Assembly: GCA_963663225.1 (NCBI GenBank) | Contig: OY760142.1 | Span: 948,333-1,012,332, forward strand | DNA length: 64,000 nt | Direction: 5' to 3' | From: Nitrospirota bacterium | GTDB taxonomy: Bacteria; Nitrospirota; UBA9217 | Shown here: one piece after another, positions 26,640-31,305 of the stretch | Position numbering within the stretch: the stretch's first letter is position 1 | How the letters are laid out: the number at the start of each line of letters is the position of its first letter | Program-made: the position numbers and the translations under genes | Notes under the pieces: generated by a model | Told to the model about the DNA's origin: nothing | The model's input: the letters and a program-made list of their open reading frames with translations, nothing else | Database searches by the model: none

Positions 26640-26942
26640 TTACCCGCAGCAGCTGCCGCTTTTTCCTGACGTGTCGCTGCACCCGCAGGTCGGCTCCCCG
26701 CCAGTAATCATGCTGTTGATGATGGCGGCGGCGCATCCCACGCCGGCCTTGACAATAATGGCGCCGAAATCGCAGTTCCGGGCGCAGGCGCCGCATTCCA
26801 GACACAAATCCTTGTCCGTAACAGCGGCCCGCTTTTCATGCATGACAAAAACTCCGCGCGGGCAAACCTCGACGCACCGTCCGCACCCCGCGCATTTGTC
26901 CGCGGCATATTCCAGTGTCGTAACATCAGCGAGATATTTCAT
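26640..26942 (-). CDS. hgcB: mercury methylation ferredoxin HgcB (2x[4Fe-4S] ferredoxin with C-terminal Cys-Cys tail)
   Basis: Two CX2CX2CX3C(P) motifs (CAGCGRCVEVCP; CLECGACARNC) and a C-terminal ...GSCCG. The ATG at 26942 overlaps the hgcA TGA stop (ATGA). Confidence 0.9.
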   Translation of the reverse strand: MKYLADVTTLEYAADKCAGCGRCVEVCPRGVFVMHEKRAAVTDKDLCLECGACARNCDFGAIIVKAGVGCAAAIINSMITGGEPTCGCSDTSGKSGSCCG

Positions 26943-28093
26943 AGAATCCCCCATTCAGCAATCTTGTACAAAACCACCAGCAGCAGCGTTATTCCGGCCG
27001 AGCTGATATAAACCGGAAGGCCGAGCTTCAGCTCTTTTTGCACCCCGGACATGCCGGTAAATGTCGTTGACCCGGTGAATTGAAGCGCAATATACGAACT
27101 CAGCAGAGGAAAAAACAGCCACGCTATGACAAGAAGCAGGACGCTGCTTTGCAGCGCCGCGTTCAAAAACAGCATGACTGCCGACAGGGCCACCACGCCC
27201 ATGAGCCACCCTTTCACCGCAAACGAGCGGACCGGGATGAACGGGAGCAATACCGGTGTCAGGAATGCTCCCGCGACGATTGCCGCAAACCCGAGCAGCA
27301 GAAACGGCAGGCCGCCGGTCCATGCCTGCTGGAACAGAATGCCGGAAGGCTGAAGACCGAAGATGAGCAGAACCGCTGCGGCAAACCACGGATACTTTTT
27401 CATGAACGGGTTGATCTCCATCGGAGTGAGAACAAGCCTGTCAAGCAGGGAAAACTGCATAAGACTCATCTCCTTCGTTTTCCTGTACCCTGCCCTGATG
27501 TAGGCAGGAATATCGGCGGCCTGCACCGGGCCGTAGGAGACGGTGAACCCTGTTTTCTTTTTGACTTCTCCCGAACTCACTCCCACGGCCCCGAGTTGAG
27601 GAACAATGATCCTGCGGTGACTGACCACGGCGTCCAGCTTTGCTCCCTGGATGCGCTTTATCAGTTCATCCGTGCCGAACGTCCCCTTGCCTGCCGCGCA
27701 CCAGACATTGATTCCCTTGGTATCCAGCACCAGAATCCACGCGTTCATTCCCCTCAGTTCGCGCCGGAGCACATCGAAGCTGAACTTGTAATTGGCGCTC
27801 ACGAAGACATCGGATTCGTTTGATGGTTCTCCCACCGCGTACAAGCCCGGTGAAACAGTGTACCGCGTGCGGAAAGCGCTGATTCTGCATTTGATCATGC
27901 CCCAGTAGTCTGACCGGGTCCATTCGGTTGAAACGTTCCGGATTGTGCCGGATGTCGAGCGATCCCAGCCAAGAGTAATCTGCGGCAGCGCCTTTTCCGT
28001 GGAGCAGCATGTTTTCGGGGCAGGAGCTGCACAGCAGGATTCATCCGGTTGCTTGTTCTCGCGAGGAAGAATGGTCAGTTTAATTTTTTGCAT
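26939..28093 (-). CDS. hgcA: mercury methylation corrinoid protein HgcA (CFeSP-like corrinoid-binding domain plus C-terminal multi-TM domain)
   Basis: Diagnostic cap-helix motif NVWCAAGKG (GINVWCAAGKGTFGTDEL). The C-terminal region has about 5 hydrophobic helices. The start ATG at 28093 has an AGGAAAGG RBS. Confidence 0.9.
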   Translation of the reverse strand: MQKIKLTILPRENKQPDESCCAAPAPKTCCSTEKALPQITLGWDRSTSGTIRNVSTEWTRSDYWGMIKCRISAFRTRYTVSPGLYAVGEPSNESDVFVSANYKFSFDVLRRELRGMNAWILVLDTKGINVWCAAGKGTFGTDELIKRIQGAKLDAVVSHRRIIVPQLGAVGVSSGEVKKKTGFTVSYGPVQAADIPAYIRAGYRKTKEMSLMQFSLLDRLVLTPMEINPFMKKYPWFAAAVLLIFGLQPSGILFQQAWTGGLPFLLLGFAAIVAGAFLTPVLLPFIPVRSFAVKGWLMGVVALSAVMLFLNAALQSSVLLLVIAWLFFPLLSSYIALQFTGSTTFTGMSGVQKELKLGLPVYISSAGITLLLVVLYKIAEWGIL

Positions 28094-28104
28094 ACATGCC
28101 TTTC

Positions 28105-29664: not shown

Positions 29665-30596
29665 GCGAGCATCCCCTTCACAATCATGTCAACGGCCTCC
29701 GAAGGAGAAAGTCCATGAGCCATGAGCGTCTCCATCTGCTTTTTATCGACGCTGCCGATAGAGGCCTCGTGCGTCACCTTTGCCAGCGGATGATTCACCT
29801 GGACGAAGGGATACGCCTTTGCCACGGCTTTGTCCTTCACAATCTCCATGCAGTCCACGTGGCCCCGCGCTCCCGCTGCATTGCCTTCGGTAATGCCGGT
29901 GATCTCGGCAGCGGCTTCATCCTCGACCGCGACCCGGGCTTTCACCAGACCCCGGGCGTTCTCCCCTTCGAGTGCGACCCTCTCCTTTATTCTAATGTCG
30001 TCATCTGCATGTCCAAAGACGCGGGCCGTCATCTCCGCCACCGCGTTTTCTCCTGCACGCACGTCGTAATCGATCGCGAGCCTGCCGACCCTGCCGTTCA
30101 CGAGCGTGAAGTCGGTATAATACCTTCCGCCCTTTCCGATCCGGACGACGAGCTTCGGCACGACCTCAATTCCGCCGTACAGACCGTGGTAATGGGTCTC
30201 CGAGTACCGCATTTCCGCCCCCTCGCCTATCTCGACCGTTGCATCCATGAGGTGCCTCACCTTTTCCGCTTTTGGAAAAATGCAGTGGGCGATGAACTTT
30301 GCTGAAGCGCCGCGTTCAAGCCTGACGTTCATTTTTATTTTTTGCAGTCCTTTTTTGTGCACGATGCCGAAGCAGAGATGAACGGGGTTTTTTATGACGG
30401 CCCCTTCCGCAACGCTGATTGAGGCCGATATGCCGTTCCGCATTTCCCGGGTTTTCACCTTCATGCCTTCGATTCCCTGCAGGCTCACGATCCGGTTTTG
30501 ATTCACGACAAGATGCGCCGTCTCCTTGTCGGCAAGGACGCTCTTCTCACCTCCGGCCGCTCCAAACGCCTCCATCAGGGCATCGAGTTCAGACAT
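29661..30596 (-). CDS. sufB: SufB/SufD family Fe-S cluster assembly protein (minimal SufBC type)
   Basis: C-terminal SufBD beta-helix region with the conserved tail ...THEASIGSVDKKQMETLMAHGLSPSEAVDMIVKGML. AAGGAGA RBS. The start overlaps the sufC end by 8 nt. Confidence 0.75.
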   Translation of the reverse strand: MSELDALMEAFGAAGGEKSVLADKETAHLVVNQNRIVSLQGIEGMKVKTREMRNGISASISVAEGAVIKNPVHLCFGIVHKKGLQKIKMNVRLERGASAKFIAHCIFPKAEKVRHLMDATVEIGEGAEMRYSETHYHGLYGGIEVVPKLVVRIGKGGRYYTDFTLVNGRVGRLAIDYDVRAGENAVAEMTARVFGHADDDIRIKERVALEGENARGLVKARVAVEDEAAAEITGITEGNAAGARGHVDCMEIVKDKAVAKAYPFVQVNHPLAKVTHEASIGSVDKKQMETLMAHGLSPSEAVDMIVKGMLA

Positions 30597-31305
30597 ACAC
30601 GCACGTCTCCTTGTCGCAAACAAGACATTTTTTTGATTTGTAATACGCGGCAACGTTGGCCGGGTTGCCGGAACAGATGATCCTGCCGTTGCACACCTGC
30701 GATGCCTGATCAGCGATGAGGGCGATTTCTTCGCGGTGCGTGATGAGCAGGACGGCGGTTCCCGCCTGCTTGAATGCCTGTATCACGTTGATGATGTCCT
30801 GCGTCGAGAGCATGTCGATTCCCGAATCAGGTTCATCGAGGACCGCGAGCTTGGGACTGAGCGCCAGAAGTGACGCGAGTTCGATCCGTTTTCGCTCTCC
30901 GCCGCTCAACGATTTATCTACCATCCTTGATGAATAAATGTCCGGACTGAGCCCCACCATCTCCAGACAGCGAAACGGGTCGGACGTCCTGCTTCCTGCG
31001 GCAAGGTAATCGCGGACCGAGATGCCCTCGAACCGCACGGGCTCCTGCCATGCCATGGTTATGCCGAGTTTCGCCCGTTCATGGATTTTCAGATCATTAA
31101 TCAGCTGTCCTTCGAAGAGCAGTTCTCCTGCTGTCGGTTTGTATCCTTCGCATCCCATGATTACATAGGCAAGCGTGCTCTTTCCGGTCCCGTTGGTTCC
31201 CAGCAGGGCATGAACATCCGATGGTTCCATGCTCAGGGAAAGCCCATCAAGTATTTTTTTCCCCGCGACATGAAACATGAGCCCAGAAATCTCAAGCAGC
31301 GGCAT
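30589..31305 (-). CDS. sufC: Fe-S cluster assembly ATPase SufC, with an unusual C-terminal Cys-rich tail
   Basis: Walker A GTNGTGKST, signature LSGGERKR, Walker B LAVLDEPDSGID, H-loop LITH. The C-terminus ends KKCLVCDKETCVYV. The start ATG at 31305 has a GAGGGAGG RBS. Confidence 0.8.
   Translation of the reverse strand: MPLLEISGLMFHVAGKKILDGLSLSMEPSDVHALLGTNGTGKSTLAYVIMGCEGYKPTAGELLFEGQLINDLKIHERAKLGITMAWQEPVRFEGISVRDYLAAGSRTSDPFRCLEMVGLSPDIYSSRMVDKSLSGGERKRIELASLLALSPKLAVLDEPDSGIDMLSTQDIINVIQAFKQAGTAVLLITHREEIALIADQASQVCNGRIICSGNPANVAAYYKSKKCLVCDKETCVYV

Follow-up and report, generated by a model that had tools for sequence, protein, structure and literature searches.

In a 64,000-nucleotide stretch of a Nitrospirota genome (contig OY760142.1, positions 948,333 to 1,012,332; hereafter the window), the mercury-methylation genes hgcA and hgcB close a run of five consecutive minus-strand genes, and the question addressed here is how their juxtaposition with Fe-S assembly and thiol-redox genes is best read. 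The open reading frame list and the sequence agree on smsC (30589-31305, 238 amino acids; initially called sufC), smsB (29661-30596, 311 amino acids; initially sufB), a gene for a thioredoxin-membrane protein that we call trxTM (28105-29664, 519 amino acids), hgcA (26939-28093, 384 amino acids) and hgcB (26640-26942, 100 amino acids), as a first-pass annotation made from the sequence alone had placed them. smsC and smsB overlap by 8 nt and hgcA and hgcB by an ATGA; trxTM overlaps smsB by 4 nt (GTGA) when started at its GTG, or follows it after a 5-nt gap when started at the ATG at 29655, the start chosen by gene callers in relatives. The gap between trxTM and hgcA is 11 nt rather than the 12 bp first given, and the overlaps were correctly described. 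Each of the five starts is preceded by a purine-rich Shine-Dalgarno-like motif, in keeping with the ribosome-binding sites previously placed within the upstream genes. At the far end of the block, hgcB and yjbQ are convergent. Of the four junctions, two were inherited with their gene pair, as the 8-nt smsC/smsB overlap, with a 238-amino-acid SmsC, was found in all three unrelated contexts checked (loci L163, L164 and L166) and 37 of 75 other loci have hgcA directly adjoining or overlapping hgcB; these two junctions therefore carry no information on how the modules are linked to each other. As proposed for a five-gene operon, the genes are closely packed in operon-like fashion, but the block does not begin at smsC, and four more same-strand genes lie upstream.

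Both hgc products score above their NCBIfam cut-offs and carry the diagnostic motifs, so their initial identification holds. HgcA reaches 394.5 bits against NF040863 (cut-off 275), with residues 51-377 aligned to positions 1-323 of the 325-position profile, an alignment that spans the corrinoid-binding and membrane domains, and its cap-helix motif NVWCAAGK (residues 129-136, N129-K136) is invariant in 20 homologs. HgcB reaches 117.5 bits against NF040864 (cut-off 99); its translation contains two CX2CX2CX3C motifs (CAGCGRCVEVC and CLECGACARNC) and a terminal SCCG, the sequence signature of a 2x[4Fe-4S] ferredoxin with a C-terminal CC. The HgcA of the window also has a cysteine-rich N-terminal tail (CC...CC; residues 1-48, ESCCAAPAPKTCC, window 27950-28093, minus strand). 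Of the 120 closest HgcA homologs, 34 have three or more cysteines among their first 60 residues, for the most part paired as CC; in this subclade of HgcA the tail may be an extension that binds metal.

The pair upstream, first described as a minimal SufBC, proved to be of the SMS type. smsC gives an ABC_tran match and smsB a SUFBD_core match (PF01458), and neither reaches the cut-offs for canonical SUF proteins (TIGR01980 for SufB, 57.2 versus 346.4; TIGR01981 for SufD, 55.8 versus 222; TIGR01978 for SufC, 169.8 versus 212.8). SmsC matches MJ0035 of Methanocaldococcus jannaschii over residues 3-233 (PDB 9h78_A, E = 2.8e-68) and SmsB matches MJ0034 over residues 7-310 (PDB 9h7y_B, E = 7e-71), in each case nearly end to end. 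The C terminus of SmsC (...QVCNGRIICSG...KKCLVCDKETCVYV) contains a C-X-X-C motif (CLVC, in KKCLVCDKETC), and this cysteine motif is conserved in six Nitrospirota orthologs; in M. jannaschii the SmsC C-terminal C-X-X-C, together with an upstream Cys, ligates a [4Fe-4S] cluster (PMC12192291). Given the full-length matches and the SmsC cysteine motif, the pair is identified by sequence as an SMS-type SmsC/SmsB minimal Fe-S scaffold, and the earlier label of a minimal SufBC was correct in this sense. The likeness to the M. jannaschii SmsCB of known structure (PDB 9H78/9H7Y; Dussouchaud et al. 2025, PMC12192291) extends to the two-gene smsC-smsB arrangement, whereas the window pair differs in being bacterial (Nitrospirota-type), in standing at the end of an ars-type cluster and in falling far below the NCBIfam SmsB model (NF052511, 71.3 bits versus a cut-off of 650), an 'exception'-type model with a very high cut-off, for which a miss mainly signifies that a protein is not close to the seed sequences. 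No sufS, sufD, sufE or sufA adjoins smsCB, whose neighbours are a metallophosphoesterase gene and trxTM, and no other SUFBD match occurs in the window. Two further ABC-type ATPase genes (14957-16700, plus strand) encode proteins about 30% identical to SmsC and are not SufC-like at the ortholog level.

The five genes continue upstream into a nine-gene, same-strand cluster of about 8 kb, in the order arsR-acr3-P5CR-like gene-metallophosphoesterase-smsC-smsB-trxTM-hgcA-hgcB. The first gene, arsR (34242-34610, minus strand), encodes an ArsR/SmtB-family repressor with an EVCVCDL motif, whose 95%-identical ortholog on the related contig L001 matches PF01022 (HTH_5), and overlaps acr3 by 4 nt. acr3 (33163-34245, minus strand) encodes an arsenite efflux permease of the SBF/ACR3 family, with a 96%-identical ortholog in L001 that matches PF01758 (SBF). 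Next come a P5CR-like NADP oxidoreductase of the F420_oxidored type (32227-33009, minus strand; PF03807, 5.7e-15), which at 108.6 against TIGR00112 lies below the proC cut-off of 196.75, and a YfcE-type metallophosphoesterase (31397-32113, minus strand; PF12850, 1.2e-25) that recurs beside acr3 and smsCB in other Nitrospirota (Acr3-Metallophos-SmsC-SmsB in L174-L176). A terminator-like hairpin (34749-34805, minus strand) with 21-nt arms that are 86% complementary, followed by a T-rich run and conserved in the related contig L171, closes the upstream hydrolase gene and marks the 5' boundary of the cluster.

Between this hairpin and arsR lies an AT-rich promoter region (34640-34730, minus strand) which holds the best sigma-70-like sites of its strand, TTGACT-16-TAAAAT (34695-34668) and TTAATA-16-TATAAT (34725-34698). 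A perfect 10-nt inverted repeat at 34645-34670 (AATATATAAA, 6 nt, TTTATATATT; 100% complementary) overlaps the best -10-like hexamer and extends downstream of it. The -35 element and the repeat are kept in L171, and the repeat is a candidate ArsR operator. A CVC-motif repressor, an arsenite efflux gene after it and a promoter/operator-like region 5' of both together have the appearance of an ArsR-regulated ars operon. A second possible start site, a candidate extended -10 element (TGnTACAAT, 31332-31340, minus strand), stands 25-35 nt upstream of smsC and is invariant in the window, L171 and L001 except at n, which varies; it was not flagged by a two-hexamer promoter scan and may act as an internal promoter through which smsCB, trxTM and hgcAB are expressed independently of ArsR.

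This element bears on the view that the genes are neighbours without forming one functional transcription unit, with smsCB expressed constitutively from its own promoter, the level of hgcAB set by internal signals, and the compaction a product of rearrangement. The island is indeed in flux. Unlike L171 and L001, the window has no arsP between acr3 and the P5CR-like gene (window 33010-33162; L171 5406-6596) and, ahead of arsR, neither DUF2703, present in L171 only, nor Thioredoxin_3, present in both (window 34611-34848; L171 3344-3913), and in locus L163 a transposase lies beside smsC. The promoter/operator region ahead of arsR is retained in the window. The ars island is being remodelled within the window's own clade. 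Against separate units, the junctions of 11 nt and 4 to 5 nt leave no intergenic space for promoters or terminators. No convincing terminator was found inside the block, where the 19 terminator-like matches are all weak, lie within coding sequence and are no commoner than in shuffled sequence (13.1 +/- 4.4). We therefore regard independent expression of adjacent genes as unlikely.

Conservation of the linkage was assessed from both sides. An HgcA-alignment scan of species-representative genomes gave at least 596 confirmed hgcA loci, of which the best 80 were inspected (from Nitrospirota, Thermoleophilia, Deltaproteobacteria, Spirochaetota, Bacteroidota, Fibrobacterota, Bacillota and others; 62 with at least 3.5 kb upstream), and 80 of at least 569 metagenomic TrxTM loci were inspected likewise (52 with at least 1 kb downstream). 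Searches by tblastn with the window proteins found smsC, smsB or trxTM upstream of hgcA in none of the 80 hgcA loci, the sole traces being a partial TrxTM-like match 4.4 kb downstream of hgcA (L018) and a weak SUFBD match (L073). Conversely, none of the 80 TrxTM loci contained hgcA, and close smsCB homologs occurred in one (L091), there downstream of trxTM. The related genome represented by L167 carries hgcAB at the same chromosomal site beside yjbQ (L167 3034-10010 versus window 22903-28093), with TopoIV-A 90%, YjbQ 88%, CpXC 70% and HgcA 66% identical to the window proteins. No smsCB or trxTM lies upstream of hgcAB in L167, where an MFS transporter gene and an AbrB/MazE-like gene are found instead. 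The idea that hgcA is a xenolog in L167 is weakened by CpXC, which lies in the same flank and is likewise only 70% identical. An extra gene of 383 amino acids follows hgcB in this genome. Upstream of the next-closest HgcA (70% identity, on the contig of P0122) the order is MacB-TP_0789-...-ChrA. The full arrangement was found only in L171/L172 and L001, whose proteins are 86-98% identical to those of the window and which are therefore too close to serve as independent evidence.

These counts weigh on the interpretation advanced in the first-pass annotation, in which smsCB and trxTM are a module that serves HgcAB specifically: co-expressed with hgcAB to this end, they would mature its cofactors and provide its electrons, loading HgcB with [4Fe-4S] clusters and furnishing HgcA with reductant. 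Several observations are in its favour: the tight spacing is conserved in the window, L171/L172 and L001; HgcB, by its motifs and by established knowledge, requires two [4Fe-4S] clusters; and the cell has an Fe-S assembly system besides smsCB, whereas an smsCB without any other such system would, by the annotation's own standard, have been housekeeping and merely adjacent. The window encodes, 25 kb from smsCB, an Rrf2/IscR-like regulator (55792-56319), nifS (56319-57503; TIGR03402, 540 bits versus a cut-off of 531) and a clostridial-type nifU (57521-57949; TIGR03419, 204 bits versus a cut-off of 188), all on the plus strand, and this Rrf2-nifS-nifU set (55792-57949) provides Fe-S assembly in addition to smsCB, by a system that differs from it in kind. 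Comparison of hgcAB neighbourhoods, the check that the annotation had itself put forward, speaks the other way. The neighbourhood is not conserved across independent lineages, in either set of 80 loci or at the syntenic site in L167, and in related genomes the linkage is essentially confined to the 86-98%-identical contigs.

The distribution of smsCB further counts against a module dedicated to HgcAB. SmsB orthologs occur across the Nitrospirota at 72-78% identity in many contexts and are of near-constant length (nearly all of the 120 matches listed have exactly 311 amino acids, a few 313-320), and the smsC overlap is the same in L163, L164 and L166, which is the pattern of a housekeeping ortholog. 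The alternative that smsCB is a divergent specialised paralog, prompted by the sub-cut-off SufB and SufC scores, was set aside in view of the MJ0034/MJ0035 matches and these uniform orthologs. Six independent contexts of smsCB were compared, and in five of them the pair stands at the distal end of a same-strand ars/thiol-redox cluster: ArsR-ArsC-Acr3-...-CcdA-...-RseC-SmsC-SmsB in L166; Trx-CcdA-SBF-...-TrxTM-FmdE-...-RseC-SmsC-SmsB in L164/L165; SBF-...-RseC-SmsC-SmsB in L173; ArsP-Trx3-ArsR-Acr3-Metallophos-SmsC-SmsB-PP2C in L174-L176; and the window's own clade. In L164/L165, L166, L173 and L174-L176, SmsC-SmsB lies at about 7.3-9.9 kb of the locus, and the stretches examined contain no hgcAB. 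In the sixth context (L163), smsCB shares a 985-kb contig with an hgcAB locus (L021) about 70 kb away. Synteny from ars genes to smsCB thus appears conserved in the Nitrospirota and independent of hgcAB. Long same-strand clusters that end in smsCB in this phylum hold arsR, arsC, acr3, arsP and genes for thioredoxins, CcdA, FmdE and RseC.

The remaining member of the block, trxTM, encodes a signal peptide, a periplasmic thioredoxin/glutaredoxin-like CPHC domain and a membrane domain of predicted CcdA fold with two invariant cysteines. Pfam gave no match for the 519-residue protein, and other searches gave only weak glutaredoxin/thioredoxin matches at residues ~90-185. The membrane domain was unmatched in Pfam, NCBIfam and PDB sequence searches: neither PF02683 (DsbD_TM) nor PF13386 (DsbD_2) matched the window protein or any of 20 family members, even at E <= 1, and a PDB profile search returned only Grx and Trx domains and no CcdA chains. 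The family is nevertheless very large, with 6324 matches at E <= 0.001 among 8000 candidates scored, mostly without hgcA. An alignment of the 20 members shows a signal peptide, the invariant CPHC, a CxxxxC that is nearly invariant, and a membrane domain whose conservation is very strong; four cysteines are invariant (C100, C103, C272 in FNPC272 and C400 in LLC400T) and two nearly so, and they form periplasmic and membrane pairs. In an AlphaFold model (mean predicted local distance difference test score (pLDDT) 61; thioredoxin and membrane domains ~60-87) both membrane cysteines lie at helix breaks, and the closest membrane-fold match is the electron transporter CcdA; as modelled, trxTM would share with CcdA both the fold and its conserved cysteine pair, one cysteine at a break in the first membrane helix and one at a break in the fourth. 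The initial label 'thioredoxin-CcdA' is accordingly apt for the fold and does not extend to the sequence family; the very large family of thioredoxin/CcdA-fold fusions to which trxTM belongs is uncharacterised and escapes the domain libraries now in use.

Compared with DsbD, ScsB and CcdA, trxTM has the same combination of a periplasmic thioredoxin-fold CxxC and a membrane domain with two essential-looking cysteines at helix breaks, and in L168 it adjoins genes for DsbC and CcmE, a contextual hint that it may transfer electrons to periplasmic oxidoreductases. It differs from them in the missing PF02683/PF13386 match, in the CxxxxC pair that its periplasmic domain carries, in one more helix at the C terminus, and in often co-occurring with canonical CcdA (PF02683), which is encoded next to trxTM in L169 and about 3 kb upstream of it in L164. 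No single neighbour of trxTM is conserved, the commonest (LMWPc/ArsC and an ABC ATPase) each occurring in 6 of ~75 loci. Several of its contexts are metalloid-related: in L169 it lies inside a large ArsR/ArsP/ArsD/ArsA/CcdA cluster (ArsR-Trx-Trx-CcdA, ArsD-ArsA), and an LMWPc-type ArsC stands beside it in L002 and six metagenome loci. Most likely, trxTM works like DsbD and ScsB, drawing reducing equivalents from the cytoplasm and handing them on to thiols in the periplasm.

Another possible role is that of a carrier of thiophilic metals or metalloids, at whose periplasmic CxxC and CxxxxC thiol-bound Hg(II) or As(III) would be picked up for transfer to the membrane cysteine pair in the manner of MerP and MerT, with delivery of substrate to HgcAB in this clade. 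The paired cysteines, the recurrence of trxTM near ArsR, ArsD/ArsA, ArsP, LMWPc and CDF genes, its place directly upstream of hgcA (11-nt gap) and the canonical CcdA in the same cluster in L169 and L164, by which trxTM is not simply the cell's CcdA, would all suit such a role. The resemblance to MerP/MerT, a periplasmic CxxC plus membrane-domain cysteines beside mercury-related genes, is one of analogy alone, with no relationship in sequence or fold and no mer genes seen nearby. General linkage to hgcA is likewise missing (0 of 80 loci), the L168 neighbours DsbC and CcmE are classic clients of DsbD-type conduits, and the best membrane-fold match, in a model of moderate quality, is an electron transporter. 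Metal delivery by trxTM thus seems quite unlikely.

The properties of trxTM also bear on the proposed supply of electrons to HgcA. DsbD/CcdA proteins move reducing equivalents out of the cytoplasm to the periplasm, and both HgcB and the HgcA corrinoid domain lie in the cytoplasm; reduction of the HgcA corrinoid by trxTM is therefore mechanistically unlikely. With electron flow in the wrong direction, a linkage that is not conserved, an SmsB that is a phylum-wide ortholog and a TrxTM family of more than 6300 members that mostly occur without hgcA, a cofactor-maturation and electron-supply module dedicated to HgcAB is very improbable.

We consider it probable instead that the adjacency reflects shared membership of an ars/thiol-stress island. 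The five genes would be the distal part of the nine-gene cluster headed by the ArsR promoter/operator, and two gene sets that each habitually attach to ars islands, smsCB with thiol-redox genes in the Nitrospirota and hgcAB in many phyla, would have become adjacent in one narrow clade. smsCB would be the organism's ordinary general SMS scaffold, an ATPase/scaffold pair of the SmsC2B2 type, and trxTM a DsbD/ScsB-like exporter of reducing equivalents that recurs in thiol-redox and metal(loid) islands. Given the tight spacing, the nine genes are likely co-transcribed; transcription would start at the presumably arsenite-responsive arsR promoter, possibly supplemented by an internal promoter before smsC, which would place the cluster under ArsR control. 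Attachment of hgcAB to ars genes is visible in the sample, ArsR or Acr3 lying within 10 kb of hgcA in 29 of the 80 loci.

Several observations weigh against this reading. The cluster contains gaps of 91, 113 and 153 nt, across which operon continuity is presumed. The near-zero spacing of smsB, trxTM and hgcA is maintained in at least three related genomes, and some selection for co-expression in the window's clade is possible. At least two other lineages (L091 and L164) also have trxTM in the vicinity of smsCB, so trxTM and smsCB may be functionally related in a way that shared island membership leaves unexplained. The comparative counts come from only 80 of the at least 596 hgcA loci and 80 of the at least 569 TrxTM loci, and many of the metagenome contigs are short.

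A bolder version holds that the ancestral SMS scaffold, the CcdA-fold thioredoxin fusion and, in this clade, hgcAB act as one ArsR-controlled metalloid/thiol-stress island, in which arsenite or other thiophilic metals would jointly induce the rebuilding of Fe-S clusters, the reduction of thiols or capture of metals in the periplasm, and methylation that depends on the corrinoid. We think this improbable; if it were true, mercury methylation would be physiologically tied to the way the cell responds to metal stress, and the handling of thiol-bound Hg(II) in the envelope, so far a missing step, could fall to trxTM. A conserved accessory module would be an important lead to the native function and regulation of HgcAB; the comparative data argue against such a module, and on present evidence they leave the HgcAB model unchanged. 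Of use beyond this question are the habitual position of smsCB downstream of ars genes in the Nitrospirota and the thioredoxin/CcdA-fold family itself.

The components of the cluster and the association of hgcAB with ars genes were already known, and the evidence indicates that the juxtaposition of smsCB, trxTM and hgcAB is lineage-specific. Literature searches combining hgcAB with sufC and hgcA with sufB found no report of this linkage among the papers covered, in agreement with the earlier remark that it is not part of the described hgcAB model. Colocalization of hgcAB with ars genes and ArsR control have both been documented (McDaniel et al. 2020, PMC7438021; Gionfriddo et al., bioRxiv 10.1101/2022.10.17.512643). 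As in those systems, hgcAB of the window is in the same orientation as, and downstream of, a CVC-motif arsR and acr3; unlike them, the window has five genes between arsR-acr3 and hgcAB, including smsCB and trxTM, an arrangement not reported in these papers. In P. mercurii ND132 an arsR-like gene lies upstream of hgcAB and is co-transcribed with it, with no other ars genes colocalised (bioRxiv 10.1101/2022.10.17.512643). The window is an unusually explicit case, with hgcAB behind a canonical arsenite-type ArsR and acr3, and it supports the published ars link. A different order is seen in another Nitrospirota locus (L013, 6657-10335), where hgcA-hgcB-acr3-metallophosphoesterase encodes an Acr3 71% and a phosphoesterase 67% identical to those of the window; acr3 and the phosphoesterase gene are thus also found together with hgcAB in an order unlike that of the window.

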